The position numbers were made by a program, and so were the translations under genes. The notes under the pieces were generated by a model. That model did not search any database. It was not told where the DNA came from and saw nothing but the letters and a program-made list of their open reading frames with translations. Positions 1,692 through 55,757 of a stretch of 64,000 bases of DNA are shown here, in pieces (within the stretch, counting starts at the first letter, position 1; every line of letters begins with the position of its first letter). Source of the DNA: Promethearchaeota archaeon (GTDB lineage: Archaea; Asgardarchaeota; Lokiarchaeia; Sigyniarchaeales; SOKP01); NCBI GenBank assembly GCA_030603385.1, contig JAUVXW010000002.1:64001-128000 (forward strand). Direction: 5' to 3'.

Positions 1692-2330
1692 TCATTGTTT
1701 TGTAGTAATTTCTAGTATCATTTCAGCTACTCTATTGTTGAATTTTTCAACATCCGCGAAGTCTTCAACAGTTTCTCCACATGTTATAAAAAATTCATTT
1801 ATGGCTATTTTTCGAGTATCAAAAAATTCTTGAATTTGGGTTTTCATTTCATCAATTTTTTTATCCCTATTTCCTTCGAGCAAGTCGACCTTATTAATAC
1901 ACACATTTATTTTATCCGGGAAAAATCTTACATCGTTGAAGAATTCAAATTGACGGTCTAAATCCCTGTCAAGTGAAAAAACAGCCACTATTTGCGTAGC
2001 GATACGAGAGATTGTTATGATTCCCATCTTGACAACAGCGCGAGCTCTATCACCACCAGGAGCGAAGATCGTATGAGCTCTGTTGCTCGAGTCTTCTCGA
2101 AACACAATTCGGTTAGGATGGATTGTTTTTGTCTCTTTTTGATTAAGAGCATCTTCCTTATCTCCTCCAGGTACTGTTGCTTCACCTGAAAAATCAGCTT
2201 TAACTACAGAGCATTTTACTCCACCTTCAACTTTTTCAATATCACCCTTTTTCAAATACCGTACAAATAACCGAAGAATACTAGTTTTTCCAACACTAAC
2301 ATCACCTAACAATCCAATGTTTACGATTAT
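1692..2330 (-). CDS. Small Ras-superfamily GTPase with atypical G3 (MglA-like); probable ATA/ATC start
   Basis: G1 GDVSVGKT, G4 NKVD, G3 FAPGG lacking Asp. The beta-1 strand IIVNIGL lies upstream of the first TTG; GAAGGTGA SD at 2334-2341. Confidence 0.8.
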   Translation of the reverse strand: MIVNIGLLGDVSVGKTSILRLFVRYLKKGDIEKVEGGVKCSVVKADFSGEATVPGGDKEDALNQKETKTIHPNRIVFREDSSNRAHTIFAPGGDRARAVVKMGIITISRIATQIVAVFSLDRDLDRQFEFFNDVRFFPDKINVCINKVDLLEGNRDKKIDEMKTQIQEFFDTRKIAINEFFITCGETVEDFADVEKFNNRVAEMILEITTKQ

Positions 2331-3145
2331 ACTTCACCTTCTAATAGCTTATTTAATAATAATTCATAGTCTGGTATTAGAAATTGTTCGAGTAGAGCAT
2401 TATTATGAGCGTGAATAAGAGCAATTAACACTTCTTTCATATTTTTTGCTTTTTTTGAATATTTTACTAAATTGTCTGAAGTAGGCTCTTCATTAAAATC
2501 TCTTGCGTGTTCTTCAAATCCAAATCTTGATAGATCAGGTAATGCATTAAAAAATCCAAAAGCAGAATAGCCCTGATATTGATAAAACACGAAGAATCTT
2601 GTTTTGATATTTTTAATTACACTAGATAAATAAGTTGATGGATAAATTTCTCCCAAGGTTAATTCTTCATCTTGTTTTATCACGAAATAAGGAGAAATTG
2701 GAGAAACTTGCGAACCGTACATTTCTTTAGGAGGAATAGAAATGAATGGAAGTTTTTCTGATACTATTGTCCAGAGGTCTTCTCTTCTTTTCTCTAACAA
2801 AATATCTTTAATCTCATCATAAGCAAAGTAGAAGTCTGATTGCAACGCTAATAGAGAACTTAAATAAACTGATATTGAAGCAAACGTAGCTTCTAATATA
2901 GGTCGTCTCCCGCCATTTGACTCTGAGGGTTTAACAGCACCTTTCCATGCCCTTAATCCTGAATACGCAAATGATTTAACATCAAAAAAGGCTCCTGAAA
3001 GAAATAAAAAAGATGGAGCATCCCCTTTATCACCAGTTAATAAATCCATAGATCTTTCAATTAAAATGCTTTCTAATTTAGCATCATGAAATCTAGAGTG
3101 AACTATGGGCATTTGTAACCAAGATTTTTTCTTTGCCAAAATCAC
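2327..3145 (-). CDS. Hypothetical protein coupled to the GTPase; possibly a divergent roadblock/MglB-like fold with insertion
   Basis: 272-aa ORF whose stop overlaps the GTPase start (ATAA); fold is inferred only from the helix/strand pattern. Confidence 0.6.
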   Translation of the reverse strand: MILAKKKSWLQMPIVHSRFHDAKLESILIERSMDLLTGDKGDAPSFLFLSGAFFDVKSFAYSGLRAWKGAVKPSESNGGRRPILEATFASISVYLSSLLALQSDFYFAYDEIKDILLEKRREDLWTIVSEKLPFISIPPKEMYGSQVSPISPYFVIKQDEELTLGEIYPSTYLSSVIKNIKTRFFVFYQYQGYSAFGFFNALPDLSRFGFEEHARDFNEEPTSDNLVKYSKKAKNMKEVLIALIHAHNNALLEQFLIPDYELLLNKLLEGEV

Positions 3146-3293
3146 TACACTCTTTTTATTAATTTCGATAAAATTATAAAGGACTGCTGAATAATTAATT
3201 TTTCCTATTTTAATTAAACAATATATTATCTCAATATAATTATTTGCAATTAATAAGAACAGATCAAGATAGAATCTTAAAAACTGAACTTCT

Positions 3294-3917
3294 TTAGCTA
3301 CCTATTTCTTTGGCTAAAAGCTCTCTCATTTTTGAAGTGATCAAATCAAATTCTTGAATTGTTTTTAAATTAGAGATTTTTATACGCTCTATCAATTTAG
3401 AATTCTTAAAATAATCATAATTCAAATCTAAATCGGGATTAATATCTTTGATTTTCAAAAGTGCTCCTCTTAAAAAAATGCCTATGAAATCTTCGGATGT
3501 TTCTCTTATTTCTCTATCCATAGGATCAAGAAGTTTTATCTCAACTTTATTAAAATCTAAGAAATTTAACACGCATAATAATTTTGATTCTTTTTCTTTT
3601 CTCTTAGAAAAAATCTTTCTTTTAATATTTGTACCTTTTACTCTTTCCTTAGGTATTTCTTCTACGAAATATTGTTCCTCAGTTGGCTTTTTTTCGACTT
3701 CCTGTAAAGATCTTGAGTAAATTTTATCTGCACTCTGAAAAGATTTATCAGATACAAGCGAATTAAGGAAATTTAAGACTTCCCTTAATTCAGAAATCTC
3801 TATTTGTAACTCTTCAAGTTGTTCTTTCTTTTTATAATAGAGATTTTGAATTTTACTTAGCATCTGTGATAATTTTTCAATCTCAGTTTCATTATCTCCA
3901 AGATCCATTGATTTCAT
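3294..3917 (-). CDS. Hypothetical protein with N-terminal coiled coil
   Basis: 207-aa ORF; heptad-rich N-terminus. Confidence 0.6.
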   Translation of the reverse strand: MKSMDLGDNETEIEKLSQMLSKIQNLYYKKKEQLEELQIEISELREVLNFLNSLVSDKSFQSADKIYSRSLQEVEKKPTEEQYFVEEIPKERVKGTNIKRKIFSKRKEKESKLLCVLNFLDFNKVEIKLLDPMDREIRETSEDFIGIFLRGALLKIKDINPDLDLNYDYFKNSKLIERIKISNLKTIQEFDLITSKMRELLAKEIGS

Positions 3918-3997
3918 ATATGTTTTATAAGAAATTAAATTTATTTAAAAATTAATGCTATTGTTAAATTAAGTAATTTTTTTAAAGTGAGATTAAA

Positions 3998-4870
3998 ATG
4001 CAATCCATGATAATAACTCCCAATCCTTCAGATCCTGAAGTTCGAATATTATGTAATGAATTCGAGAAAAAAGGCTATAATGTGGAATTTTTTATCCCCT
4101 CAACAATGAAAGTAATGGTTTCATTCAAGGAGAAGTTTAAAGAAAAATTTGAAAACCTTGAACCTAGAGCAGCTTTGGTGAGAGGTTTTGGTGCTGCTGC
4201 TACTCAAAAAATTTTTTTTAGGCTTGATATCTTAAGAGCAATTGAAGAATATGATGTTAAATTAATAAATTCAAGGGAATCTTTAGAAATCGCGAGTGAT
4301 AAATTTTTAACTTCAATATTTCTTGAGAAACATAAAATTCCAACACCTAAAACAATCATATGTGAAGACCCTAATAAAGCGTTAGAAGCTTTTGAAGATT
4401 TAGGAGGAGACTGTGTCTTTAAACCTCTTTTTGGATCAAAAGGTATAGGAATCACTCGTTTGAATGACAAAGCGTTTGCTGAAAATGTTTTATATTCTTT
4501 AGGTCGGCTAAATGAAGTATTTTATCTGCAAAAATTTATCGAACATAATAAGAGAGATATCAGAATTCTAGTTTTGGGTGATAGGGTTGTCGCTGGGATG
4601 TATCGAGTAGGCGATAGCTGGAAAACAAATATCTATGCTGGTGCAAAAGCGGAGCCTTTAGAAATTTCAGAAGAATTAGAAAACCTAGCAATCAAAGCAG
4701 CTCAAGTGACCAAAACTGAAATTGCTGGAGTAGATCTAATTGAAGGAAAAAAGGGTTTTCTTGTATTGGAAGTCAATTCAATTCCGGGTTTTACAGCCTT
4801 ACAAAAAGTTACTTCTGTTAATATAGCAGAAGAAATAGTTGAATATTTTTTAAAAGAAAGCAAGGGATAA
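3998..4870 (+). CDS. RimK-family ATP-grasp alpha-L-glutamate ligase (MptN/CofF/RimK-like)
   Basis: KPLFGSKGIG, RDIRILV, WKTNIYAGA, GVDL..EVNSIPGF motifs. Confidence 0.9.
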   Translation: MQSMIITPNPSDPEVRILCNEFEKKGYNVEFFIPSTMKVMVSFKEKFKEKFENLEPRAALVRGFGAAATQKIFFRLDILRAIEEYDVKLINSRESLEIASDKFLTSIFLEKHKIPTPKTIICEDPNKALEAFEDLGGDCVFKPLFGSKGIGITRLNDKAFAENVLYSLGRLNEVFYLQKFIEHNKRDIRILVLGDRVVAGMYRVGDSWKTNIYAGAKAEPLEISEELENLAIKAAQVTKTEIAGVDLIEGKKGFLVLEVNSIPGFTALQKVTSVNIAEEIVEYFLKESKG

Positions 4871-4937
4871 AAGGAACTTATTTAAAAAAAAGAAAAAAAA
4901 TAATAAGATTATAAAGAGCCAAATTATCAATCTCAAT

Positions 4938-5273
4938 TTAAAGATCTTCAATTAATCCTATTAAGAAAGCAATTAATACTAATACTCCTGCGATTATGTC
5001 GACAAAAACAAATAATAATATTGCTAAAATCAAAAGAACAAACCAATGAAATGGGATCGGATTATTAGGTTTTAATGCAACCCAGAATGTAAAAATTACC
5101 ACTACTAATCCAATAATAAAGTTAACAACAATATGTACTCCAACATCAATTGGTAAAACTTGATATTGATCACCGATATCTGTAAGCCTAAGTATTAAAT
5201 ATACTAACCCTACAATAGCACCTAAAATCGTCAATAATTTCATTAATTGTCCATTTTTGTATTTTTTAGTCAA
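4938..5273 (-). CDS. Small membrane protein
   Basis: Three to four hydrophobic segments. Confidence 0.65.
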   Translation of the reverse strand: MTKKYKNGQLMKLLTILGAIVGLVYLILRLTDIGDQYQVLPIDVGVHIVVNFIIGLVVVIFTFWVALKPNNPIPFHWFVLLILAILLFVFVDIIAGVLVLIAFLIGLIEDL

Positions 5274-5429
5274 TTTGTATCAACTCATTTGAAATAATAG
5301 TTTCTATTAAGTCATTAAGTTATAAAAGCATTTATATTTCAATTTAGAAATACCAAAAAAGTTTGTTTAGCTTTATTTAAAACGACTTTACAAGAGGTTA
5401 AAATCAAAATTCGTGGCTGTTAGGATCAA

Positions 5430-5657
5430 TTGTATAATATCACGATATTTTTCTATTTTAAATACGATTTGTTTTGTAAAAACCATGTGATTGACGAAAA
5501 AATAAATCGATATAAGCATGAAATTAACCTTGCAAAAAAAATATCTAGTATGATACATGCTGATGGAGATTACTATGAAAATTTGATAATCAAATTTCAA
5601 AAAATCATAAGGTTTTATGAAGATTTAAAAATTTGGAGAAAAATTTCAGAAAGTTAG
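5430..5657 (+). CDS. Small hypothetical protein or degraded gene
   Basis: 75-aa ORF; the upstream frame looks coding but has in-frame TAG stops. Confidence 0.3.
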   Translation: MYNITIFFYFKYDLFCKNHVIDEKINRYKHEINLAKKISSMIHADGDYYENLIIKFQKIIRFYEDLKIWRKISES

Positions 5658-5668
5658 GACTTATAATC

Positions 5669-6283
5669 TTACACGAGAAACAAATTTATTCCAAATTCGT
5701 TTTTTAGGGTTTCATATAATTTATGCATAGGGAATCCGATTACATTTGAAGAAGATCCATTTATTTTTTTAATGAATAGACTTGCTTTATCACTTATTGA
5801 GTATGCTCCAGCACGTCCTTTCCATTCATTAATTTTAACATAACCACGTATTTCTTCATCTGAAAGGTTTAAAAATTCGACCGATGTTGTATCATAGTCT
5901 ATAAAAATTTTTGGATTGTTAGTCTCGGTAATTGCCATTCCTGTAATAAGATTATGAGACTTACCCATTAATTTTTTTAGAATAACAATTGCTTCCTTTT
6001 TGTTTTTAGCCTTACCTATAATTTCACCATTTAATTCTACAATAGTATCCGCTGCGATAATAATAGCTTGCGAATTTTTCTTTAATAACTCTTTTTTAGC
6101 ATATAACGCTTTAGCTTTTGCTAATTCTTTTACCAATAAAATTGGATCGGAAAATTTCTCCTTAAATTCTCTTTCATCAATATTAGATGCTAAAACTTCA
6201 AAAGGAATGCCAGAATGTTTGAAGATATTTCCACGATCTACGGATTTTGAAGCTAATATAATTTTTTTCAATACTATTACCAA
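5669..6283 (-). CDS. maf: Maf-family nucleoside triphosphate pyrophosphatase
   Basis: IILASKSVDR, ADTIV..IIGK, EWKGRAGAYSI, NVIGFP. Confidence 0.92.
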   Translation of the reverse strand: MVIVLKKIILASKSVDRGNIFKHSGIPFEVLASNIDEREFKEKFSDPILLVKELAKAKALYAKKELLKKNSQAIIIAADTIVELNGEIIGKAKNKKEAIVILKKLMGKSHNLITGMAITETNNPKIFIDYDTTSVEFLNLSDEEIRGYVKINEWKGRAGAYSISDKASLFIKKINGSSSNVIGFPMHKLYETLKNEFGINLFLV

Positions 6284-9046: not shown

Positions 9047-9223
9047 TTAATCATCATCTTCAGTAGCTTCTTCCATAGCCTTCTTAAATCCTTTTTTAAC
9101 GCTACCTTTCTTTATTCCTTTTTTAACACCTTTTCCTAAAGCCTCTGAACCAGTTACGCTTTCAACAAGCCCACCGGTAGCTTTAGCAAAGCCCTTCTTA
9201 AGCTTCTTACCAAACCCACCCAT
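9047..9223 (-). CDS. Small Gly/Lys-rich protein with acidic tail
   Basis: ATG at 9223 after a GAGTGTGA SD-like sequence; codon pattern looks coding. Confidence 0.6.
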   Translation of the reverse strand: MGGFGKKLKKGFAKATGGLVESVTGSEALGKGVKKGIKKGSVKKGFKKAMEEATEDDD

Positions 9224-9488
9224 AAAAATCACACTCTTTTGTTATCTTTTTTCTTGATTAAATTGTGGTAAATTGTTACAATATTCTTATATTAACATAA
9301 TGTAAATTTGGGTATTATAAATGTTATGGAAGTCTTTAAGTAAATATCAATTAAGATAATCTGATTTAGTAGAATTAAAAATTTATTATACTCAACAGAA
9401 TTTTATTAAATTTTTAACAAATAGATTCTAATAATGTTGTTAGTAAATATCCATATCAATTCTATTAATTAATATTTTATCAAATTGT

Positions 9489-10507: not shown

Positions 10508-11272
10508 TTAAAATATTTTTGGAAAGATTAATTTAGTATTTTCATAGATTTGATTTTCCAAATCATCAGGGGGAATGTCTTTAAATTTTGAAATTGTGTT
10601 TAAAACATCTCTAATCATTGCAGGAGTTCCATCTTTTCCTGAATATTTAACAGGTCCATCGCTTTCAAGCAAGAGATGTTCTACATCAACTCTTAAAACT
10701 GTTTTTTTCACTGCAGGAGAATAACTAATTGCTGGAGTAATTGAGAAAAAGTATCCTCTATCTATTCCTAAATTTAAAAATTCTTCTGGTCCTGAATACC
10801 AATGAATATTAACATAAGGTATATTAAATGAAGGGAGCATATCAAATACTAATTTTTCAGCTCCCTTTGTGTGGAGATTCACAGGTAATTCTAACTCTTG
10901 AGCTAACGATAACATTTTTTCAAAAATATTTGTTTGAAGTGGATAAAACACCTTTTCTTTTATAAAATGATGATCTAATCCTATTTCACCAATAGAACAT
11001 ATATTTTCTTTATTTTCTCTAATTGTTTTAATGACAGAATCTAGTTGATTTTCAATATCCTTATTCATTCTTACTTCTTCAGGGTGAATACCTAAAGCAG
11101 GATAAATTTCTTTATGTCTCTCTGAAATTTCTAATACTCTTTCAATGCTAACAGCACTCATTCCAACAGCAATAATCTTTTCTACCCCTACACTTTTAGC
11201 GTCCTTAATTACTTGTTCTAACGCTAAGTAAAGATTCGCATGACAATGAACATCAATTAGGATATTTAGCAC
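10508..11272 (-). CDS. tatD: TatD-family DNase
   Basis: DVHCH, GIHP, GEIGLD, LHT, IHWYSG, LLESDGP. Confidence 0.93.
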   Translation of the reverse strand: MLNILIDVHCHANLYLALEQVIKDAKSVGVEKIIAVGMSAVSIERVLEISERHKEIYPALGIHPEEVRMNKDIENQLDSVIKTIRENKENICSIGEIGLDHHFIKEKVFYPLQTNIFEKMLSLAQELELPVNLHTKGAEKLVFDMLPSFNIPYVNIHWYSGPEEFLNLGIDRGYFFSITPAISYSPAVKKTVLRVDVEHLLLESDGPVKYSGKDGTPAMIRDVLNTISKFKDIPPDDLENQIYENTKLIFPKIF

Positions 11273-16929: not shown

Positions 16930-17547
16930 CTAATTGTTTATATCTAAAATTATATTTACAATTCGGTTAATATATTTACTCTTTTGAATCTTACAAATGT
17001 GAGCAACCTTTCTATAATTAAAAGACTCTGCTAATGTATCTAGATAGGAAAGATTATATAAAATTGAGACGTTGTCATTATTCTTCATGAAAAGCATATC
17101 TAATTCTCGCTGAATTTTGTTGTCGCTAATCTTCTTCTTTTTTTTTACCCTTTTATTAATCTCAGTAAGAGCATCATCAAAGTCAATATCCCGTATACTT
17201 GAGATAAGAGAATTCAGCACTATAGCATATAAAACAACGATATCAATGTTATCCGTGTCCTTTAAATTGTGGAATTTGAGTTGTAGATCTTGGTAAATTT
17301 CATTGATATAATTCTCATCTATACCCTTAATTTTTTTGAAGAGATTTAAGAATTGTAGATATTTACCATCGAGAAATAAGTGCAGATTACGATTAAACAG
17401 ATCTTTAAATTTTCTTATAATTTGCCCCGAATTACTTATTTTTACAGAAACTTCAGGTGTTCTGCCAATAATTATATCCTGACCATCTTTGTAAAACTGT
17501 TGATTAATTAAATTATTCGTCGCATCATATAGCTGTTCCAAAATCAT
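16930..17547 (-). CDS. Hypothetical protein
   Basis: 205-aa ORF with ATG start. Confidence 0.6.
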   Translation of the reverse strand: MILEQLYDATNNLINQQFYKDGQDIIIGRTPEVSVKISNSGQIIRKFKDLFNRNLHLFLDGKYLQFLNLFKKIKGIDENYINEIYQDLQLKFHNLKDTDNIDIVVLYAIVLNSLISSIRDIDFDDALTEINKRVKKKKKISDNKIQRELDMLFMKNNDNVSILYNLSYLDTLAESFNYRKVAHICKIQKSKYINRIVNIILDINN

Positions 17548-17991
17548 TCCGATCGCAAATCACCGATAAATAAAATTTTATGTCTGTTCTTAATACAGTT
17601 AGTAAAAATACAATGATTTAATTTTTTGCACTTTTACCTAATTCTTTTCTATTAGTGCTATTAAGGCTTAATAATATAAGAATAATATATTAATGAACTC
17701 CAATTTTTACTAATCGTATCCATAATTTCTAGCAGAAAATGGAAAATGAAATAATGAATCTGTTTATTCAATTTTTTAATCTTGTATAAATGGCTATAGA
17801 TAATTTTTTTTAAAGATGTGCTTTAATATGTTCTAAAAAACATGGAAAAAGAAATATAACCTTTTTATATCATTGTAACCTTTTAATATTGTTATTTTAA
17901 GAAAATATTCAATAAATAACATAATAAAATTATTTACTTTAATAATTTTCAAAATAAAAGAGTAAAATTATATAAAAAGGTTGAAAATAAA

Positions 17992-19411: not shown

Positions 19412-19513
19412 GGGCCTGTAATCTAGCCTGGATAGGGTGCCCGGCTTCGGATTTCTCTGAAAGAAGAAAAAGAAGAAACTGGGATGTCGCAGGTTCGAAT
19501 CCTGCCTGGCCCA
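19412..19513 (+). tRNA. tRNA-Arg(TCG) with a 27-nt canonical (37/38) intron
   Basis: Anticodon stem CCCGG/CTGGG, loop CT-TCG-G|A; BHB helix CTTC/GAAG; intron 19451-19477; T-arm GCAGG-TTCGAAT-CCTGC. Confidence 0.9.
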
Positions 19514-20968: not shown

Positions 20969-21208
20969 ATAATTTTATTAAATTTCTATTTTCTTTTTGT
21001 TTTTATTTTATCTTATTTTGATTTGTATCACGCAAACCCTAAACCATTCTGAATTTCTTGGGTTTATCTTTTTATAGATAAGCTCTTTTTTTTATTTAAT
21101 CTTAAGTGTAAAAAAGTATTTATATGTGTAAAATAGTATAAATATGTAAAAAATGAACAATTATTCATTAATTAATTTAATTGCACTCATTTATTGAAGG
21201 TGTAGAAC

Positions 21209-21949
21209 ATAACCGATTATAACCAGGATAAAGAAAGAATTTCTTTATATGTATCTAAAGATATTAAAGAAGAATGGCAAACTTTTGCTAAAAATAATGA
21301 TTATTCCACTTTATCGAAACTGATAAGGGAAGCTTTAAGATTCTTTATTCAATGTAGAGGATTAGATCTTTCAACTCTTTCTCATGATTTAAAAGAACCT
21401 TTAACCTCAATTAAAGGGTATTTACAATTAATTATTGAAACATATGGAAAATCAATAGAAAGTAATGTAATATCTACATTGAAAAATGTACTGAACCAAT
21501 GTTTGATCTTAGAGAATAAAATCGTAGAATATTTGGATAAATTTGAGACTGAAATGGAAGAAGAGAGTATAAATCAAAAGAGTGAATATGATATTCTTTT
21601 AGTGGAAGATGACCAGGAGACTGTTAACTTACTGACGAGTTATTTCGAGTCAATAAATATAATATGCAAGGGTGTTTTAAGTGGCTTTAAAGGGCTAAAA
21701 GAACTAAAAAGATATGCACCAAAACTGATTTTACTTGACATTATTCTTCCAGATATCAATGGATATGAGATATTAAAGAGAATAAGAGCAGAAGAAAAAT
21801 TAAAAGACATTCCTGTATTTTTTCTTACAGCTATACCAAGTGTAGAAGTAGAGAAAAAGTCATTAGATTTAGGAGCTACAGGTTCAATTTTAAAGCCTTT
21901 TAATTTAACTGATTTTGATGTGATTTATAAGTATTTGGAAAAAAAATAG
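21209..21949 (+). CDS. RHH DNA-binding + HisKA + receiver (REC) protein; ATA start
   Basis: Open frame from ATA 21209 (GAAGGTG SD at 21196-21202, in-frame TAG just upstream): KERISLYVSKDIKEEWQ..LSKLIREAL (RHH), SHDLKEPLTSIKG (H-box), then REC (VEDD, LLDIILP, LTA, KP). Confidence 0.85.
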   Translation: MTDYNQDKERISLYVSKDIKEEWQTFAKNNDYSTLSKLIREALRFFIQCRGLDLSTLSHDLKEPLTSIKGYLQLIIETYGKSIESNVISTLKNVLNQCLILENKIVEYLDKFETEMEEESINQKSEYDILLVEDDQETVNLLTSYFESINIICKGVLSGFKGLKELKRYAPKLILLDIILPDINGYEILKRIRAEEKLKDIPVFFLTAIPSVEVEKKSLDLGATGSILKPFNLTDFDVIYKYLEKK

Positions 21950-27353: not shown

Positions 27354-27444
27354 CATTTAAAACGAACTTATAGAATTTTAAGCAAAATTTTTAATTTCAT
27401 AATAAATAGATGATACAAGTAAAAGACTAATGGGTTGATGACAT

Positions 27445-27987
27445 ATATCATTTGATTTATCTGCATTTAAATTATTAATTAAGAAGATTTTTCCACCAAA
27501 AAAAAGCGTTTTCACTGTAGATACTACAGGAGATGGAAAAGGAGATTCTATACAAATAAAAGTAATTAATCTACTATTTCCATTCGTAGTTCCTGAGAAT
27601 ATTGAGTTAGGAGATTTTGATTTAAAGAGCTTTGATGTACAAAATTTTGATATTTCGGAATATGTAACATTGTTCATAGATGATAGACCGATTAACGTTT
27701 CAAAAGATTCTTTCAACTTTGAAACAATAAAGGATCGATTCTTAATTTATCATAAGGGAGAATCATTTAAACTAAGTGATATCCTTGAAGGTAAATTTAG
27801 TGGAAGAACTATAGCCTTAGGTGATAGTATTAGTATTTTAATTAAATTAGATACAGAAACCCTAAACACATTAACTGAAGGAAAACACATTTTCAAGATT
27901 GATAGTGAATTCGTCTCGAACCTTATAATTAATTTTGAATTGGATAAAACTAATATGAATCTAAAGTTTGATCCAAAAAACCCATAA
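27445..27987 (+). CDS. Hypothetical beta-rich protein; probable ATA start
   Basis: Frame is open 75 codons upstream of the ORF-track TTG, to ATA 27445 (GGTTGA upstream, in-frame TGA before it). Confidence 0.55.
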   Translation: MSFDLSAFKLLIKKIFPPKKSVFTVDTTGDGKGDSIQIKVINLLFPFVVPENIELGDFDLKSFDVQNFDISEYVTLFIDDRPINVSKDSFNFETIKDRFLIYHKGESFKLSDILEGKFSGRTIALGDSISILIKLDTETLNTLTEGKHIFKIDSEFVSNLIINFELDKTNMNLKFDPKNP

Positions 27988-31146: not shown

Positions 31147-31239
31147 TGCGCCGCCCGGGAATCGAACCCGGGTTACTGGCTGACTTCAATCGGTTCTGAC
31201 TATGGAAGGCCAGAATCCTAACCCCTAGACTAGCGGCGC
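31147..31239 (-). tRNA. tRNA-Gly(TCC) with a 21-nt canonical intron
   Basis: GCGCCGC/GCGGCGC acceptor, CTGGC-CTTCCA|A-GCCAG anticodon arm, BHB CTTC/GAAG, intron 31182-31202. Confidence 0.93.
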
Positions 31240-32630: not shown

Positions 32631-32718
32631 CGTCCCAAAACTCAAAAAATACAAAAATTTTTAATTTATTCTAGCTTCAAAAACGTATTATATATTATTT
32701 ATTTAATGGTGTGAAAAA

Positions 32719-33144
32719 ATTTCAATATATGTCGTTCAACCAGAAAAACTAGTTGAAGCTATTGCAGAAAAGTTAAAGGAATTTCCCGAAATTTCACCAC
32801 CTAAGGGTTCAGAATTTTGGAAGACAGCGTTTTTTAAAGAATTAGCTCCTAGTGATTCAGAAAATTTCTGGTATATCCGATGCGCCTCTTTGCTTAGAAA
32901 ATTGAAGAAATTTGGACCTATTGGAGTTAGTAAACTTCGAAAATTTTATGGAGGAAAAAATAGAAAAGGTAAAGGTTTACATCATTCTGCTAGAGGTAGT
33001 GGAAAAATAATAAGAGTAGCACTTCAACAGCTTGAAAAAGCAAACTTAATTAAAATGAAAGAAAAAAAAGGAAGAGTTCTTTCTTCTGAAGGAACTAGTC
33101 TATTGGAACGAACGGCATATGTGATTATGAGAAGTAAAGATTAA
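32719..33144 (+). CDS. rps19e: 30S ribosomal protein eS19; ATT start
   Basis: The conserved N-half (SIYVVQPEKLVEAIAEKLK..PP..FWKTAFFKELAP..WYIRCASLLRK) lies upstream of the first TTG. In-frame TAA at 32704; GGTGTGA precedes ATT 32719. Confidence 0.93.
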   Translation: MSIYVVQPEKLVEAIAEKLKEFPEISPPKGSEFWKTAFFKELAPSDSENFWYIRCASLLRKLKKFGPIGVSKLRKFYGGKNRKGKGLHHSARGSGKIIRVALQQLEKANLIKMKEKKGRVLSSEGTSLLERTAYVIMRSKD

Positions 33145-39770: not shown

Positions 39771-39929
39771 GGTTAATAAGTACAGAAAATTTTATTAGAA
39801 ACATGAGACTTAGGATAGAATTACTGAGGTTTAATGGGTTAATTGCACCTCACAATTCTAATAGAGCTGCATGTTTTAGACACCTCAAAATGTCTATTCA
39901 CCTAATTAAAAGAACAAGGAACGATAAAA

Positions 39930-41702
39930 ATGCCTCTTTCTTCACATAAGTTCCCGCATATTGAACATAAAGTGGATTTTTGCGTTGTTGGTGGAGGTAT
40001 GGCAGGACTTGTTGCATCTATAGCTGCTGCACGGCATGGAACTAAAGTTCTTCTTATGCATGACCGTCCCGTGCTTGGTGGTAACGCTTCAAGTGAATGT
40101 CGTATTCACATCTGCGGGGCCGACCGTCATAACCGGATTCCTAACATGCGTGAGACTGGTATTCTTGAGGAGATCCGCCTCGAGAATCTGCACTGCAACC
40201 CAAATCGCAATTATTCAGTATGGGATATGGTGCTCTATGATTTAGCCGAGAGGACATCAAACTTGACAGTATTGCTGAACTGCTCATGTATGGACGCCAC
40301 ATTGGATGATAATTATATCAAGTCTATATCGGGTTGGCAAACTACATCACAGACTCGCCACACAGTGTGGGCACAGATTTTTGCTGACTGCTCAGGAGAC
40401 TCAGTACTTGCCCCTCTCACGGGAGCAGAATATCGTATGGGGCGCGAGGGACGTGATGAAACAGGTGAGACGATCGCTCCAGAAAAAGCAGACGCAGGAA
40501 CAATGGGGATGACATGCCTCTTTCAAGCTCGTGATTTCGGTACACCACAGACCTTTAAATCCCCTAAATGGGCTAATATTTATACACGGGACGAAGACCT
40601 TCCCTACGGAACCAGAGGTCACAACCATGGGGAGTGGTGGGGACTGGGATATTGGTGGGTAGAATTAGGAGGAGTTTGTCACTCCATCCATGACACGGAG
40701 CGGATGCGTCGTGATCTTTTGAAGATTGCCCTTGGGGTATGGGATCACATCAAAAACCAAGGTGATCATGGCGCGGAAAATTGGGGACTTGAATGGCTAC
40801 AATTTCTCCCAGGTAAGCGGGAAAGTCGGCGATACATCGGTGATTATGTCCTTACGCAACAAGATATCGAGGAGGGTGGTAAGTTCGATGATATAGTGGC
40901 TTATGGGGGGTGGTCGATGGATGATCATCACCCAGCGGGTTTCGAAGCAGTGAGGTTTGGTTCTCCCCCTACGATTTACCACCCGGCGCCGTCACCCTAT
41001 GGCATTCCCTATCGCTCACTCTACTCACGCAATGTGGGTAACCTGATGTTCGCGGGACGGAATGTAAGCGTGACGCATGCAGCTCTTAGTTCAACACGTG
41101 TTATGGGTACCTGCATCAGTATGGGCCAGGCTATGGGTACGGCGGTAGCAATGGCTGTGCGTCACTCGTTGACACCACGCGAAGTGAGTGAACGTGTAAA
41201 CGAACTCCAGCAACTGCTTTTGCTTGACGATTGCTACTTACCGTGGATTCCGCAGAAGTTCTCGTCCCTAACCATAAATGCAAGACTAAAGGCATCGAAT
41301 GGTGTTGATCCTGAGCCAGTGCGGGATGGGTGGAATAGACAAATTGGTGATGATCCTCACGCATGGACAGCTCGATCAGGTGACTCGATTACTTATCTGT
41401 TTGAAACACCGTCCCATGTATCAGAGGTGAAGCTTCTTCTCGACACAGCAATGGATAGAGATCTGGCGCTCAGTTTACACTACAGGGATCATGGGATGAC
41501 ACATATTCCCGAAGAAACACCTCGTAGGTTTCGCATCGACGTGATGAAAGACGGGGAATGGCACAAGTTTAGAGTAGTGGAAGGGAACTACCAGCGACAG
41601 GTGTGTGTTGGCATAGGTGAGGTGGTAGAGGGTGTACGCTATACACTTACTGAGACCCATGGTGCAGAAACATCTCGAGTATACGGATTTTATGTTCGGT
41701 AG
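39930..41702 (+). CDS. FAD-dependent oxidoreductase (FAD_oxidored family) with C-terminal beta-sandwich; high GC, probably horizontally acquired
   Basis: VVGGGMAG, LGGNASSE, DCSGD, KRESRR, IPYRSLY, STRVMGTC; abrupt GC rise confined to the gene. Confidence 0.9.
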   Translation: MPLSSHKFPHIEHKVDFCVVGGGMAGLVASIAAARHGTKVLLMHDRPVLGGNASSECRIHICGADRHNRIPNMRETGILEEIRLENLHCNPNRNYSVWDMVLYDLAERTSNLTVLLNCSCMDATLDDNYIKSISGWQTTSQTRHTVWAQIFADCSGDSVLAPLTGAEYRMGREGRDETGETIAPEKADAGTMGMTCLFQARDFGTPQTFKSPKWANIYTRDEDLPYGTRGHNHGEWWGLGYWWVELGGVCHSIHDTERMRRDLLKIALGVWDHIKNQGDHGAENWGLEWLQFLPGKRESRRYIGDYVLTQQDIEEGGKFDDIVAYGGWSMDDHHPAGFEAVRFGSPPTIYHPAPSPYGIPYRSLYSRNVGNLMFAGRNVSVTHAALSSTRVMGTCISMGQAMGTAVAMAVRHSLTPREVSERVNELQQLLLLDDCYLPWIPQKFSSLTINARLKASNGVDPEPVRDGWNRQIGDDPHAWTARSGDSITYLFETPSHVSEVKLLLDTAMDRDLALSLHYRDHGMTHIPEETPRRFRIDVMKDGEWHKFRVVEGNYQRQVCVGIGEVVEGVRYTLTETHGAETSRVYGFYVR

Positions 41703-47937: not shown

Positions 47938-48035
47938 TTCTCAAAAAAGTCTTTTGAAACAAACGAATAATTTTAGAAAAGAAGGTGTAATCTATTTCAA
48001 GTTGGAGAGAATTAAAACAAGAATCCGATGAAGTT

Positions 48036-48962
48036 TTGAGTATACAGACTAATCTGTGTACAGAATGCGGGAACACTATATTTTTTGATGAAAATAGAGG
48101 TTTATTAGTTTGTGAAGAATGCGGTTTAGTACATTCTGAGAAACATATTGATAGAGGTCCGGAATGGAGGGCTTTTAATGCAGATCAAAAAAAGAAGAGA
48201 ACTAGAACTGGTGCACCTATGACATATATGATACATGATAAGGGTCTTAGTACTATGATAGACTGGAGAAATAGAGATATTTTTGGTAAGGAAATACCTG
48301 CTAAATTGAGAGGTCAAATATATAGACTTCGAAAGTGGCAAAGTCGTATCAGAGTTTCTGATGCTACTGAGAGAAACCTTACATTTGCACTAAGTGAACT
48401 TGATAGAATGGCTTCAAACTTAGAGCTTCAAAAAAATTTAAGAGAATGTGCTGCAAAAATTTACCGTGATGCTGTTGAGGCTCATCTTATTCGCGGTAGA
48501 AGCATTGAGGGGGTGGCCGCTGCTAGTTTATATGCTGCATGTAGAATGTTTAAAGTACCACGTACATTAAACGAGATTGCTGAAGTAGCTCGTGTAGATA
48601 AAAAGGAGATCAGCAGATCTTTTCGATTTATTTCGAATGAACTAGAATTAAACTTAAACCCAACTAAACCAATCGATTTTCTTACTAGATTCATTTCAGA
48701 GTTAAAACTAACATCTAACTGCCAAAAAATGGCAAAAGCGATTATTAGAATGGCAGAAAGACGAGGATTAACTTCAGGAAGAGGTCCTACAGGAGTATGT
48801 GCAGCTGCAATTTATGCTTCAAGTATTTTATCAAATGAACGTAGAACTCAGAGAAGTATTGCTCGAGTTAGTTGTGTGACCGAAGTTACAGTCCGAAATC
48901 GTTTTAGTGAACTTGTAGAGAATCTAAATCTTGGCATATCTTTAAAGAGGAATAATAAATAA
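48036..48962 (+). CDS. tfb: Transcription initiation factor IIB; start may be ATT 47994
   Basis: CTECG..CEECG Zn ribbon, GPEWRAF, HDKGLST, two cyclin folds. Confidence 0.96.
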
Positions 48963-50172: not shown

Positions 50173-50205
50173 CCCAATAATCTAATAAACTTATGGTGAG
50201 TCGTC

Positions 50206-50700
50206 ATTCACTTAGTAATAACTTACTTTAACCAAATATTAGGACCAAGTGTTTTGTTATCTTATCCTGATGAATTGTTAGAGGAAAATCTCATAAATAA
50301 ATTAAAAAAGTTTTTTGATTTAGAAATTGATGAGACCTTCTTCGAAATAATCCTTATTACTAAGAAAAAGAAAATTATCAATTTTCATTTCGAAATTCCG
50401 TCTAAGTGGGCACGTGGGGAAAAGGAGGATGCCATGCTCTCCCTAATAATAAAGAAAGAATATGAAAGTTCTCAATTTTATGCATTTCTAGTAGATTCAT
50501 CGTATAAAATCTTAAAAACTGAAAATGTGTACAAAGCTTTTTATAAAGATGATGAATTTCACGATAATGATATTGAAATTGATATGACGTATGAAATAAT
50601 AAGAAAAATTCTTTTTAACTGTGTATCAAGTCTTATATTACGGATAGAAGATAAAATTAAAGGAGTAGATAAAAAAGAACCGTTTCCTTTCTCTTCGTAA
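50206..50700 (+). CDS. uDENN/NPR2-type longin-like protein; ATT start
   Basis: N-terminal IHLVITYFNQILGPSVLLSYP (FxxxxGP..YP motif) lies upstream of the first TTG; GGTGAG SD at 50195-50200. Confidence 0.65.
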   Translation: MHLVITYFNQILGPSVLLSYPDELLEENLINKLKKFFDLEIDETFFEIILITKKKKIINFHFEIPSKWARGEKEDAMLSLIIKKEYESSQFYAFLVDSSYKILKTENVYKAFYKDDEFHDNDIEIDMTYEIIRKILFNCVSSLILRIEDKIKGVDKKEPFPFSS

Positions 50701-50717: not shown

Positions 50718-50737
50718 TTATTTTCCTATTATAATAA

Positions 50738-51063: not shown

Positions 51064-51819
51064 TTATTTTTCTTTTTTAATTAGTGAGAGAATGTCATTG
51101 TATGAACCCAGTAATTCCCTAACATTTGAATTATTTAATCCCTCAAGAGGAGTACCTTCAAAAGCAATCCTACCATCGTTTAAAACCAATATTTTCTCTG
51201 CCCAATTTTCAACAAAAAATAGATTATGTGTAGTGAAGAAAATTGTAATGTTATTCTCTTTTCTTAACTTCTCAATAATTTTTAAATGATTATATATCGA
51301 TTTAAAATCAAGGTTAGCAAAAGGTTCGTCTAATATTAGCAAATTAGGTTTCATTACTAAAACTCCTGCTAATGCTGCTCTCTTTTTTTGACCCCATGAA
51401 AGGTTAAATGGTGAATAATTTCTAAAATCTTCTAAATCAACTGCTTTCAAAGCCCAGCTAACTCTTTCCTTTACTTCGTCATCACCTAATTTTAAGTTTC
51501 TTGCTCCAAAGCTGATATCTTCTTCAATAGTTGGCGCAAAAAGTTGATCATCTGGGTTTTGAAATAAAAAACCAACCGATTGTCTAATTTCCCATAGATC
51601 TCGTTTATTTCTTGTAACATTTTTCTCAAAAATCCTAATTGAACCAGATTTTGGTTTCAATAATCCTACTAATAATCTTAATAAAGTTGTCTTACCTGAT
51701 CCATTATTTCCTGTTAATGCATAAATTGAGTTGTCTTCAATTTTAAAAGAGAGATCGTTAATTTTAAACCGATTATCATAGCTAAAATTTAGATTTTCAA
51801 CTTCTACGGCAAAAATAAT
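51064..51819 (-). CDS. cbiO: ECF (Co/Ni) transporter ATPase CbiO/NikO; ATT start
   Basis: Walker A GNNGSGKT lies upstream of the first TTG; FQNPDDQ, LSWGQ, LDEP; AAGGTG SD 7 nt before ATT 51819. Confidence 0.9.
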   Translation of the reverse strand: MIFAVEVENLNFSYDNRFKINDLSFKIEDNSIYALTGNNGSGKTTLLRLLVGLLKPKSGSIRIFEKNVTRNKRDLWEIRQSVGFLFQNPDDQLFAPTIEEDISFGARNLKLGDDEVKERVSWALKAVDLEDFRNYSPFNLSWGQKKRAALAGVLVMKPNLLILDEPFANLDFKSIYNHLKIIEKLRKENNITIFFTTHNLFFVENWAEKILVLNDGRIAFEGTPLEGLNNSNVRELLGSYNDILSLIKKEK

Positions 51820-52607
51820 GTAATTACACCTTGATATATTGATTGCAAATTTAATATAAAAATCATAAAAACCATGATTACACTGAAAAGAGTAAAAAAA
51901 CTTAAATCAATTAATGTAAATTTTTTAGGAGCAAATGTTATTTTACCTGTAAAACCTCGCATTTTCAAACTTTCGTATAGTTTTTCACTTTTCTCCATAT
52001 TTATTACAATACTCTTTCCCATAATAAAAGCGTGTGATTTTAATTTCTGATAATATGATGCGATATTTTTACCACGCATTTCTTGTGCTTCTAGTATCTT
52101 TCTATTTGAGTTTGCTAAGATTGGAATATAATGCAACATAATTATTAAGGATCCTACAAAAATGGATGGGATTCTTAACTTTGTTAAAGCTTCTATGAAT
52201 TCAGAATAAGTTAAAGTTGAGAAAAAGGACATAAATACAAATAATGCCCCAAGAACTCTTAAAATTGTTAGAGAAGCTAAAATTAATCCTTCCTTAAAAA
52301 TTGTTATCGTAATTCCCATATTGAATTGATAAAGAACAATATCTCCAACGTATAAAGGAATGAATATCGTTAGTAGAAATATAAAGGGAATGACTATTCT
52401 TAATCTTGAGAGTATTTCTATTATGTTTAATCTAAATATTAAATCAATAATAAAAATAATTAATAGAATAGAAACTATCAGATAAATATCATCTATAATG
52501 ATAAAAGGTATTACAAAAATAAACGGTAAAATTAAACGAGTTAAAGGGTGACTTTTTTTTAAATAAATTTTCTCATCTTCAAGTCTAAAAGGTAAGTTTA
52601 TCTTCAA
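51804..52607 (-). CDS. cbiQ: ECF transmembrane component CbiQ/NikQ
   Basis: TM helices; AQEMRG and SLKMRGF coupling motifs. Confidence 0.88.
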   Translation of the reverse strand: MKINLPFRLEDEKIYLKKSHPLTRLILPFIFVIPFIIIDDIYLIVSILLIIFIIDLIFRLNIIEILSRLRIVIPFIFLLTIFIPLYVGDIVLYQFNMGITITIFKEGLILASLTILRVLGALFVFMSFFSTLTYSEFIEALTKLRIPSIFVGSLIIMLHYIPILANSNRKILEAQEMRGKNIASYYQKLKSHAFIMGKSIVINMEKSEKLYESLKMRGFTGKITFAPKKFTLIDLSFFTLFSVIMVFMIFILNLQSIYQGVITLFLP

Positions 52608-52650
52608 AATTTAATCAACTTAACAAAAAATTTAAACAATTCAATCCGTC

Positions 52651-52735
52651 TTTTTCATACTTTTTTTTAAAAAAAGTAATATTTAATAATTTTCATACTT
52701 TTTTATAATATAGTAACATTTTAATATATCATTAC
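52651..52735. promoter_or_regulatory. Tandem imperfect repeat with NikR-like half-sites in the divergent cbiQO/cbiM promoter
   Basis: TCATAC-N15-GTAATA, then TCATAC-N14-GTAACA, then CATTAC. Confidence 0.4.
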
Positions 52736-52763
52736 AAAAAAAATTAACTATTGTGTTTTAAAA

Positions 52764-53783
52764 ATGCATATACCAGATGGTTTATTAAATCCAACCACAA
52801 TTATTTTCCTTTGGGTTATTGTTATAGTGGTAATGATTCTTGGATATTTTAAAATAGGGAAAATCTTTGAGAAAGAAGATTCTGAAAAATTAGTTCCCTA
52901 TATTGGAGTATTGGCAGCAGTTATTTTTGCATTTCAATTTGTTAACTATCCTGTTCCTGGAGGAACTTCTGGTCATTTAATTGGAGGAACACTTATTGCT
53001 ATTATATTGGGACCATGGGCTTCTGTTATAATTCTCTTCTTGGTTTTAGTTGTACAGAGCTTATTTGGAGATGGAGGAATTCTTGCCATGGGAGCAAATG
53101 CTTTCAATATGGGAATAATTGGGGGAATAGTTGGATTCTATATTGTTGTATTTATTGTAAAAATCTTAAATAAAACATCTATTAGAAAAGAATTAAAAGT
53201 TTCTATTGCAACAGCGATTGGTGCGTATATTTCTATCATTTTAGCTGCGTTTATATGTGCTATTGAATTAGGTGTTTCTGGAGCAGTCCCTTATGGGATA
53301 GCAATTCCTGCAATGGTTTATTGGCACCTTTTGATTGGCATTGGTGAAGCAATTATATCTTCTTTAATAATATTCTATATTTATAGAGTGAAACCAGATC
53401 TTATTACAACAGAACCAATAATGATGAATAAAGTTATACTTATCAATATTTCTAAATATAAAAGACCTATTACTTCAACATTAGCTGTTACTGGGTTATT
53501 AATGCTGATGATAGCAGTTGGATTCACTATTGGGATATTATCTGGTGCGCCAGATGGATTAGAACGTGTATTGATCGATCAAAATGGTGAATCATGGTTA
53601 GATAATTTAGCATCTCCGTGGATACCTCTATTAAGTTGGATTACAAATGATTATGGTGCCGCAATTATAGGTATTGTTATTTCTATTCTTATAATATCTT
53701 CTACTTTCTACTTAATCATCCGATATAAAAAAAAGAATACAAATAATTCGTCTGCTTCTCACGATTTAATGAAAAATGCATGA
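52764..53783 (+). CDS. cbiM: CbiM/NikM substrate-binding component fused to a NikN-like PDGLE domain
   Basis: N-terminal MHIPDG, GTSGHLIG, HLLIGIGE, C-terminal PDGLE. Confidence 0.92.
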   Translation: MHIPDGLLNPTTIIFLWVIVIVVMILGYFKIGKIFEKEDSEKLVPYIGVLAAVIFAFQFVNYPVPGGTSGHLIGGTLIAIILGPWASVIILFLVLVVQSLFGDGGILAMGANAFNMGIIGGIVGFYIVVFIVKILNKTSIRKELKVSIATAIGAYISIILAAFICAIELGVSGAVPYGIAIPAMVYWHLLIGIGEAIISSLIIFYIYRVKPDLITTEPIMMNKVILINISKYKRPITSTLAVTGLLMLMIAVGFTIGILSGAPDGLERVLIDQNGESWLDNLASPWIPLLSWITNDYGAAIIGIVISILIISSTFYLIIRYKKKNTNNSSASHDLMKNA

Positions 53784-53957
53784 TCTTAATTTGAATTGTG
53801 GTTCTTAGGTTTCATTTCTATCTTTCTTTTTTTTATTTTTAATAATTAATAAGATATTATTGAATAATTTAGAGCCCTATATTCAACTTTAAAATATCTA
53901 AATTAATTAATAAGAAAATTCTTGTTAATATAATAAAATTTACTTTAATTTCCTTCG

Positions 53958-54554
53958 ATGAATTTAATATTTTTTATTAAATCTGGAACAGTTAATCTCG
54001 ATAACTATACTATTAAAGATATTCCAGGGTCTTCTGGCAGATTAGATGTAATTTCAAGGTGTATTCTAGCGGCTATACTAAGTACAGGAGATTTTGAAAA
54101 AAAAATTCAAATTTGGGTCTTTTTAGACAATTATGGTACATTCGTTTTTAACCCAGAATTATTAGATTATAGAAATTTTCCTAAAACTGAATTAATGTTA
54201 ACAGACCATTTTGTAACCTTCCTATTAAAATCAAATTTAGGAGAAAAACCAAATTATAATCCACTTAATTCTGTTATAACATCAAACATGAGTATTATAG
54301 AAGCTATAAAAAAATTTCAAAAAATAAATTATAGGATATTTGCTTTAAAAGAAGATGGTAATGATTTTTTCAAGGTAAAAAGCAAAATTCAAGAGAAGAG
54401 GGAGATCTTATTTATTATTGGTAGTCAGGAAGATGAATTTCTTAATTCAAAGGAATTATTAGCATTAAAAATTCCAACCATAAGTATTGGAAATCAATCA
54501 TATTTAGCTTCTTCAGTTATTAGGTTGTTGAAATTACACATATTATTATTATAA
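53958..54554 (+). CDS. trmY: tRNA (pseudouridine54-N1)-methyltransferase, SPOUT fold
   Basis: DIPGSSGRLDVISRCI, LKEDG, ISIG..YLAS. Confidence 0.82.
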   Translation: MNLIFFIKSGTVNLDNYTIKDIPGSSGRLDVISRCILAAILSTGDFEKKIQIWVFLDNYGTFVFNPELLDYRNFPKTELMLTDHFVTFLLKSNLGEKPNYNPLNSVITSNMSIIEAIKKFQKINYRIFALKEDGNDFFKVKSKIQEKREILFIIGSQEDEFLNSKELLALKIPTISIGNQSYLASSVIRLLKLHILLL

Positions 54555-54625
54555 TAAATTTTTTATTAGAGAGAAATTTTAAAAATATTAATCTAAATTA
54601 TAGGATTTTAGGATTCAAAAAGGAA

Positions 54626-55321
54626 TTGAATGAGATAGAAGATTCAAATAAAAGAGCTCGACAGAGAGAATTTTCAAGTAGATTTATTAATCGCCCAGTG
54701 GAATTTTTAATTAAACATAATATTACACCTAATAAGATTTCTTATATAGGATTCATCTGTTCAATAGTTGCATCATTATTAATTGCGATATTTGGATTGT
54801 ATTTTTCTGTATGGCTTTCTTGGATTATTCCTTCTATAATGGGAATAGGTGGTGCTATGGATTTATTTGATGGAGAAGTAGCAAGAAGAACAGATAAAGA
54901 AACTCAAACTGGTGCATTTTTAGATTCGAATTTAGATAGACTTTCTGATGCTATTTGTGTTTTGGGTTTAATTTATGGAGGTTTGCTAAACTATTTATTA
55001 GGTTATATTATTTTATTTTTAGTTATTATGATTTCTTATGTACGTTCAAGAGCTGAAAATGAGGGTGTTAATATGAAAGGAATCGGTTTTATGGAACGAG
55101 CTGAACGGGTCCTATTTTTACTTTTTGCTATAATTGGAGAACTAATATTTTATTTTGTAACATCCCTTTCATTAGGTAAACCTATAACAATTGCTATCCC
55201 TTTTATCACTAGAGTAGCAGTCACACCAGTTTTTCTTATCAGCATAATCATTTATACTTTTACCTTAATTTATACGGTCCTACAAAGATTAAGTTATACT
55301 TTTAAGAATTTAGACAGCTAA
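54626..55321 (+). CDS. CDP-alcohol phosphatidyltransferase (archaetidylinositol phosphate synthase-like)
   Basis: DLFDGEVARR..GAFLDSNLDRLSD, SYVRSRAE, ERAER. Confidence 0.9.
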   Translation: MNEIEDSNKRARQREFSSRFINRPVEFLIKHNITPNKISYIGFICSIVASLLIAIFGLYFSVWLSWIIPSIMGIGGAMDLFDGEVARRTDKETQTGAFLDSNLDRLSDAICVLGLIYGGLLNYLLGYIILFLVIMISYVRSRAENEGVNMKGIGFMERAERVLFLLFAIIGELIFYFVTSLSLGKPITIAIPFITRVAVTPVFLISIIIYTFTLIYTVLQRLSYTFKNLDS

Positions 55322-55484
55322 AATCCAAATCATACTAAGATATAGTCAAATCTATAAAATTTTTTACCTCCTATTCATTTTCGAAATTTACTATGCTTAA
55401 GGATAAATTTTTTAAGTTTTATCTAATTCAATTTCATTAGAGATATTAAAAATAATAAGATAAAATTAAAACTAGCTGATTTAT

Positions 55485-55757
55485 ATTCCGAAAAAAAGAA
55501 AAAGTGGCGGAAAAACAGGAAGCCGGAAGGGCCAGGATCATAAAGTTCAATGCTATAAATGTGGTCGATTTGTTGCTCGTAGTAAAGCTAAAGCTGTTAC
55601 AAGAAGAACATCTTTAGTTGATGGTAGAATGTATGCTGAATTAAAAAAAGCAGGTACAATAATAATGGGTTCTTCTTCGACTAAATACTACTGTATTAGC
55701 TGCGCAATTCACAGCCATCAAATAAGCCAACGAGATAAAAGTTTAAGAAAACAATAA
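55485..55757 (+). CDS. rps26e: 30S ribosomal protein eS26 (absent from the ORF track); ATT start
   Basis: (ATT)PKKRKSGGKTGSRKGQDHKVQCYKCGRFVARSKAK...YYCISCAIH...LRKQ*. Confidence 0.93.
   Translation: MPKKRKSGGKTGSRKGQDHKVQCYKCGRFVARSKAKAVTRRTSLVDGRMYAELKKAGTIIMGSSSTKYYCISCAIHSHQISQRDKSLRKQ

Follow-up and report, generated by a model that had tools for sequence, protein, structure and literature searches.

ATT, ATA and ATC as Probable Working Start Codons behind Shine-Dalgarno-Type Motifs in a Family of Lokiarchaeia

Introduction

Archaea have been described as starting translation at AUG, GUG and UUG (PMC7531240; PMC4705826). We here describe a stretch of 64,000 nucleotides (nt) from a Promethearchaeota archaeon of the Lokiarchaeia (GenBank assembly GCA_030603385.1, contig JAUVXW010000002.1, positions 64,001 to 128,000; hereafter, the window), in which genes such as those encoding transcription factor B (TFB) and the ribosomal proteins eS19 and eS26 were predicted to begin at ATT or ATA. 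Comparison with related genomes indicates that several per cent of the ordinary genes in this genome and its family, these three among them, almost certainly begin at ATT, ATA or ATC (collectively, ATH) behind a ribosome-binding site. A whole family of Asgard archaea, which are among the closest known relatives of eukaryotes, would thus use AUU, AUA and AUC for several per cent of its genes.

Rare starts at ATT, ATA and ATC are permitted by NCBI translation table 11, as in Escherichia coli pcnB and similar genes. The same three codons and the same dependence on a Shine-Dalgarno (SD) sequence are seen here; in bacteria, however, they are isolated exceptions, whereas in the present genome they make up about a quarter of the starts led by GGTG, including those of TFB and ribosomal proteins. 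Mitochondrial codes also use ATT, ATA and ATC as regular starts, and mitochondria resemble the present lineage in having ATH codons as routine initiators in AT-rich genomes; they differ in that no SD sequence is involved and ATA means Met in several of their codes, whereas here there is no sign of a changed codon meaning within genes.

The closest parallel is bacterial infC, encoding initiation factor IF3, which has an AUU start and, according to the account of Butler et al. (1987) given in PMC4705826, is under translational autocontrol. In infC, as here, AUU stands behind an SD sequence and the weak codon is conserved instead of being replaced by AUG, and in this genus the counterpart factor, aIF1, is also AUU-started. 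The lineage described here differs in using the archaeal machinery (aIF1, aIF1A and aIF2) and in the number of genes concerned, dozens to hundreds as against one or two; any feedback here is hypothetical. In eukaryotes, eIF1 is autoregulated through the poor context of its own start, and near-cognate initiation occurs (PMC4705826). A weak start on the mRNA of aIF1, the homologue of eIF1 and itself the fidelity factor, would follow the same logic, but in the present case the weakness lies in the codon and not in a Kozak context, and SD pairing takes the place of scanning. Among Asgard archaea, a "rare ATT start codon" has been inferred for the tubulin AtubA of the Kariarchaeaceae, a Heimdall-type family (PMC13394414). 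There, too, an Asgard gene had been shortened by annotation, and an ATT at a plausible distance from a ribosome-binding site restored the first beta strand; that observation is a methods remark on a single gene in another Asgard class, without statistics or a view of the lineage. It was the nearest precedent in our literature search, which yielded no systematic description of an ATH-start habit.

Genomes and Comparisons

The source assembly comprises 3.89 Mb in 58 contigs and has a G+C content of 31%. It was compared with 18 genomes of the same genus, which are 70-88% identical to the window in DNA and agree with it in gene order, and with more distant relatives; f1 denotes the family of the source genome, and f2 and f4 other families of the same order. 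ATG, GTG and TTG were taken as canonical starts. Every open frame of the window was compared with 170 loci from relatives, and nine gene products were searched against Pfam profiles at a threshold of E<=0.001. The differences in nucleotides from relatives between each ATH and the first canonical codon downstream were counted by codon position and are given below as positions 1/2/3.

Genes of the Window That Begin at ATT, ATA or ATC

The original prediction named eight genes with ATT or ATA starts. At all eight sites, as claimed, an in-frame stop lies just upstream and no ATG, GTG or TTG precedes the conserved N-terminus, the nearest canonical codon following only after 5 to 91 codons. When aligned with 15-80 related genomes, each of these genes was again assigned an ATH start: orthologues have ATG, TTG, GTG or ATH at the same aligned codon, and the downstream canonical starts are not supported. 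A ninth case, a TatD-family hydrolase that the prediction had not listed, emerged from the survey of the window. All nine firm sites lie 6-7 nt after GGTG or a variant with one mismatch, and the stretch between ATH and the first canonical codon evolves as coding sequence. With nine firm cases in about 69 genes, the proposal that roughly a tenth of the genes in the window are affected is upheld.

The gene for TFB (47994..48959, plus strand) starts at ATT 47994, with AAGGTG (GGTG at 47984-47987) 6 nt upstream and an in-frame TAA between the two. This start, offered at first only as probable, is borne out: about 77 of 80 species genomes have ATT, or in a few cases ATC or ATA, behind AGGTG, one has GTG and none has ATG. 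In the relatives AAGGTG is conserved and TAA often stands between SD and start, and the N-terminal peptide ISSW(K/R/N)E is kept through synonymous changes. The short variable linker shows only a weak third-position bias. A TTG at codon 15 would retain the Zn ribbon, which Pfam places at residues 22-61, but relatives do not share that TTG. The TFB genes of families f2 and f4 have a canonical start, ATG or GTG.

Two ribosomal proteins would suffer severely from canonical starts, which would cost half of eS26 and 40% of eS19. The eS19 gene (32719..33141, plus strand) starts at ATT 32719, 7 nt after GGTG at 32708-32711; the first canonical codon is 57 codons downstream. Residues 3-138 of the product match positions 2-136 of the 137-position Pfam profile, and the codon-position differences are 118/77/404. 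In 15 of 15 relatives among the matches listed, ATG without an SD sequence stands at this codon, and against these the source genome alone has ATT together with a new TGGTGTGA.

The eS26 gene (55485..55754, plus strand) starts at ATT 55485, exactly where the universal MPKKR sequence begins, as had been predicted, and the first canonical codon is 48 codons downstream. The accompanying statement that this site has no clear SD does not hold, as a conserved SD-like GCTGAT (55475-55480) lies 4 nt upstream. The start is ATT or ATA in 14 genomes of the genus; across Asgard archaea, the column shows ATT or ATA in genera g1 and g12 behind the conserved GCTGAT, and TTG, GTG or ATG in 20 other genomes. 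Residues 1-89 match profile positions 1-93, and the codon-position differences are 85/57/166. Database records for eS26 illustrate the expectation that standard annotation truncates or misses such genes: it holds for many of them, with fragments of 53-76 aa in ENA, JGI and Logan sources. It does not hold throughout, because NCBI already calls eS26 from ATT in one genome (GCA_054389295.1); in another (GCA_048941385.1) the annotated start is a CTG three codons upstream, which is part of the conserved SD-like GCTGAT.

Among the remaining genes, a P-loop GTPase-like protein with the G1 motif GDVSVGKT (1695..2327, minus strand) has an ATH start as predicted, but not at ATA 2330. Because the canonical start of the relatives aligns one codon after that ATA, with ATG, GTG or TTG at this codon in 16 relatives of the same genus, the homologous start is ATC 2327-2325. 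GGTG (2338-2335) lies 7 nt upstream, and the TGA found there supplies the in-frame stop. The TAA that ends the upstream gene overlaps the start, giving TAATC here and TAATG in relatives. Over the next five codons, 27 of 27 nucleotide differences fall at third positions (0/0/27). The TatD-family hydrolase (10511..11263, minus strand) starts at ATC 11263-11261, with GAGGTG (GGTG at 11273-11270) 6 nt upstream; the TatD_DNase profile 1-252 matches residues 3-247. Two relatives, G002 and G004, have ATT in the start column, G004 with an in-frame TAA between SD and ATT, and among the matches listed eleven relatives have ATG and one (G015) has ACG.

A protein with HisKA and receiver domains (21209..21946, plus strand) carries an N-terminal extension that starts at ATA 21209, 6 nt after GGTG at 21199-21202, which is followed by an in-frame TAG. 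ATT takes the place of this ATA in G002 and stands one codon further upstream in G004. A canonical start would be available only 90 codons downstream and would remove the HisKA domain at residues 54-83; the codon-position differences are 17/8/47. A conserved hypothetical protein (27445..27984, plus strand) starts at ATA 27445 behind the SD variant GGGTTGATGA (27432-27441), which includes an in-frame TGA; no canonical codon occurs until 75 codons downstream, and the differences are 123/57/218. Seven relatives have ATA (four), ATC (two) or ATT (one) at this site, behind GGGTGA or GGTTGA.

A Longin/uDENN-like small protein (50206..50697, plus strand) starts at ATT 50206, 7 nt after the GGTG of GGTGA (50195-50199), the TGA of which is in frame. 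Start and SD appear to be coupled here: among 17 distinct relative genomes, nine of the ten with TGGTGA have ATT, ATC, ATA, TTG or GTG and one has ATG, and all seven without the SD have ATG. A CbiO/EcfA-type ABC ATPase (51067..51819, minus strand) overlaps the end of the upstream gene and begins with tandem ATT codons at 51819 and 51816, the first of them 7 nt after GGTG (51830-51827). Of 14 same-genus orthologues, 13 have ATT within two codons of the site, mostly the second ATT, behind GGTG or GGGTG. Residues 21-168 match positions 2-137 of the ABC_tran profile, a start at the first canonical codon, 52 codons downstream, would sacrifice the Walker A motif, and the codon-position differences are 142/37/278. 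The GTPase, the hypothetical protein and the uDENN-like protein gave no Pfam match at the threshold used.

A possible tenth case (16933..17553, minus strand) has ATC 17553, 8 nt after GGTG, with ATG two codons later at 17547. The two positions read ATC and GTG in G002 and ATA and ATA in one relative; another relative retains the ATG alone.

Genome-Wide Occurrence

Every GGTG of the source genome was scanned for codons that open a frame of at least 100 codons, with a stop upstream and no canonical codon between. At 7 nt after GGTG, ATG was found 22 times, TTG 12, GTG 2, ATT 13, ATA 9 and ATC 3 times; with 25 occurrences, ATH was about as common as ATG and outnumbered all 58 remaining non-canonical sense codons combined, which gave 17. 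At control spacings of 10, 13 and 16 nt, which lie in the same frame as the TGA of GGTGA, there were 4 ATH against 111 others, so that ATH codons are concentrated at the canonical spacing (Fisher p = 5e-14). An enrichment of SD sequences before ATH, which had been proposed as a check on the prediction, was thereby found. The pattern recurred in 1.2 Mb of a second species (G006), in which ATH occurred 13 times at 7 nt, ATG 4, TTG 6 and other codons 8 times. Over spacings of 4-9 nt in the source genome, ATH exceeded background by about 45 genes, beside about 132 GGTG-led canonical starts, and ATH thus accounts for roughly a quarter of GGTG-led starts. Genes led by an SD form a minority, however: GGTG stands upstream at only about 5% of the first canonical starts, which agrees with a published comment that describes SD motifs as not prevalent in a Loki genome (PMC7531240). 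When SD motifs were simply counted over the whole genome, any signal was diluted away, and the spacing-resolved scan was needed.

The same two species were also compared directly. Of 543 orthologue pairs with 150 codons or more, 420 are compatible with a canonical start, 80 are ambiguous, 24 need ATH and 19 need other non-canonical codons, several of the last group having ATH or CTG immediately after an in-frame SD. In the 484 cases of a clear ATG in one species, the codon of the other is ATG 364 times, TTG 27, ATH 22, GTG 6, ACG 2 and CTG 2 times. In a sample of 470 start columns, ATG made up 73%, TTG 13%, GTG 4.5% and ATH 9.8%, which agrees with the earlier impression that TTG and GTG starts are frequent; GGTG preceded 22% of the ATH starts versus 3% of the ATG starts. 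Only about a third of ATH starts remain ATH between the two species. A further near-cognate start, CTG behind AAAGGTG, was seen in the source genome at C20:9490-10813 (+), aligned with ATG in the second species.

The Initiation Factor aIF1

In the five same-genus genomes whose start was read, the gene for aIF1 begins at ATT behind GGTTGTGAT. In G002 (locus L381, 3115-3441, minus strand), and likewise at loci L376, L378, L379 and L382, ATT follows AAAGGTTGTGAT, with TTG-TGA-TAA in frame just before. No ATG, GTG or TTG precedes the zinc knuckle in aIF1 of this genus, and the product is colinear with the solved aIF1 structure 4MO0. A locus search with the aIF1 of G026 gave only three usable loci. 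The start is TTG in Harpocratesius repetitus (f2) and ATG in the cultured Lokiarchaeum ossiferum. The extent of the habit beyond f1 was judged on three genes only, TFB, eS26 and aIF1, which begin at canonical codons in f2, f4 and further families of Asgard archaea.

The SUI1 profile of aIF1 (PF01253) was not found in the source assembly. Loss of aIF1 as a cause of the unusual starts was considered and rejected, because PF01253 was detected in 16 of the 18 genomes of the genus and in 8 of 12 from the order. The region around aIF1 in G002 corresponds to the extreme end of contig C11 in the source assembly, and because the expected place of the gene lies past that end, its absence is to be read as an assembly gap, not a loss.

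Proposed Mechanism and Alternative Explanations

We propose that AUU, AUA and AUC are, very probably, working start codons in this Loki-type family, positioned by SD sequences and paired with initiator Met-tRNA through their first two bases. GGUG(A) or a near variant would pair with the 3' end of 16S rRNA, placing the AUH codon, 6-7 nt downstream, in the P site; initiator Met-tRNA would then pair via the first two bases only, with the third-base mismatch tolerated, and start-codon stringency would be set low enough for useful output. This low stringency may arise because aIF1 itself is made from an AUU start, with a possible negative feedback like that of infC. A complex of the Sulfolobus 30S subunit with aIF1A, aIF2 and Met-tRNAi reportedly binds AUU mRNA in vitro unless aIF1 is present (PMC4705826). 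Because of this binding, and because ATH swaps freely with ATG, TTG and GTG, we infer decoding by the initiator tRNA and hence Met as first residue.

Several observations weigh against this proposal or limit it. About 70% of the ATH starts inferred from the two-species alignment have no clear SD 4-mer, and part of these SD-less calls are probably conserved promoter or leader DNA and not starts, as in two false leads within the window (the element in open frame 2327-3301 and the cbiM leader, described below). We estimate that ATH starts account for 3-10% of genes genome-wide, with a floor of about 45 genes; the upper value of 10% is soft because of the many calls without a clear SD and because conserved leaders mimic coding sequence. 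The changes from ATG to ATH in eS19 and the GTPase occur in the source genome only, that is, in one assembly. Neither the 3' end of 16S rRNA nor an initiator tRNA was found in the assembly, and the pairing partners are thus unseen; the search for the latter used ARAGORN with and without introns, the Rfam tRNA model on the source genome and G006, motif searches and an acceptor/T-arm scan. About 22 tRNA genes were detectable in the source genome and 20 in G006, a complete relative, most of them with introns, and standard tools recover the tRNAs of this lineage only poorly.

If the real starts were the next ATG, GTG or TTG, the conserved upstream stretch would be untranslated leader or promoter DNA that stays open by chance. 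The two false leads show that such DNA can mimic an N-terminal extension, and the Zn ribbon of TFB would indeed survive a start at codon 15; against this, half of eS26, 40% of eS19, the HisKA domain and the Walker A motif of CbiO would be deleted by canonical starts, the stretches show by their third-position bias and synonymous changes that they are coding, and the TTG of TFB lacks conservation, which together make this explanation highly improbable. Still harder to credit, to the point of being practically dismissed, is a systematic consensus or assembly error concealing ATG. The eS19 ATT and the GTPase ATC would be open to it, each being present in one assembly only, but for TFB (about 77 of 80), eS26, CbiO and the hypothetical protein the same ATH recurs in numerous assemblies produced independently by different studies, ATT, ATA and ATC alternate at one site, and the change in eS19 is accompanied by a rebuilt upstream region with an SD. 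An altered genetic code was rejected as well, since within genes ATH corresponds to Ile when compared with relatives and Pfam matches, and only the first codon is unusual.

As to the route of initiation, the weak starts might be used mainly through termination-reinitiation or on leaderless mRNAs, with SD-guided de novo initiation not the main route. The overlap of the GTPase ATC with the upstream stop (TAATC), the overlap of CbiO with the gene before it, and the lack of an SD at most ATG starts of the genome and many inferred ATH starts speak for such a route. TFB, eS19, eS26 and the HisKA gene, however, are first genes behind intergenic or divergent regions and yet have an SD at 6-7 nt, the sharp spacing peak points to positioning by the SD, and at the nine sites the SD conserved ahead of the start speaks for an mRNA with a leader, so that we consider this route unlikely, if worth keeping in mind. 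Leaderless initiation, moreover, depends more strongly on the start codon itself (PMC4705826). As to the first residue, ATH might be read by an elongator Ile-tRNA or a special initiator, giving proteins that begin with Ile. Nothing direct favours this, apart from the fact that the 22 tRNA genes found include no initiator; we know of no archaeal system that initiates with Ile, and the free exchange of ATH with ATG, TTG and GTG in one column is as expected from a single initiator that reads them all, which leaves Ile initiation with very little probability.

Returning to SD-positioned initiation with initiator Met-tRNA, two evolutionary patterns can be discerned. The eS19, GTPase, TatD and uDENN-like genes look like cases of drift between ATG with no or a partial SD and ATH, TTG or GTG with a full GGTG SD; start and SD change together, in that uDENN-like genes have non-ATG codons with the SD and ATG without it, and eS19 gained its SD along with ATT. 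The claim of a relaxed start-codon selection fits the free swapping at eS19, the GTPase and the uDENN-like gene; it does not fit TFB and aIF1, which keep the weak codon. Because their codon is kept, whereas only about a third of ATH starts persist between the two species compared, the pattern suggests that selection holds it in place, possibly for a regulatory role. It is conceivable, though rather doubtful, that the AUH-started genes, including those for TFB and ribosomal proteins, form a translational regulon set by the level of AUU-started aIF1. If so, one fidelity factor would tune transcription and ribosome supply together in an Asgard family, and eukaryotic control of stringency through eIF1 would have an archaeal forerunner in this arrangement.

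Many gene finders cut ATH-started genes short, AtubA being an example (PMC13394414). The gene sets of these genomes are partly truncated or inconsistent, with consequences for structure predictions, for expression constructs and for how many eukaryote-like proteins are counted. The lineage may also serve as a natural system for how SD pairing and aIF1 jointly set start-codon stringency, and it raises the question of whether the weak start on TFB and aIF1 is a regulatory device.

Other Features of the Window

Two candidate extensions in the window were rejected. The "conserved peptide" that suggested an ATH start for open frame 2327-3301 is a near-invariant DNA element of 35 nt, ATTATATTGAGATAATATATTGTTTAATTAAAATA (about 3190-3240, minus strand), which is almost unchanged in 12 same-genus genomes, third positions included. 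Because three of the 12 have this element out of frame or broken by a stop codon, it is to be regarded as a conserved non-coding signal, with the real start about 30 codons downstream. Likewise, the 39 nt before the ATG of cbiM (52725-52763, plus strand) are conserved and open in frame, yet represent a conserved leader; this extension was dropped because MHIPDG at the conserved ATG is the N-terminus of that family.

The window contains two tRNA genes, at 19412-19513 (plus strand) and 31147-31239 (minus strand). A gene of 58 codons at 9051-9224 (minus strand) encodes a lysine- and glycine-rich small protein (MGGFGKKLKK...) conserved in 16 relatives, and the plus-strand frame 9051-9254, which has no start codon of any kind, is merely its shadow. 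The segment at 40-44 kb has a G+C content of 39%, compared with 27-32% elsewhere. At 39906-41699 (plus strand) it contains a 598-codon frame resembling a FAD-type oxidoreductase, which has no counterpart in the syntenic loci of the 18 same-genus genomes, and the segment is possibly acquired DNA.

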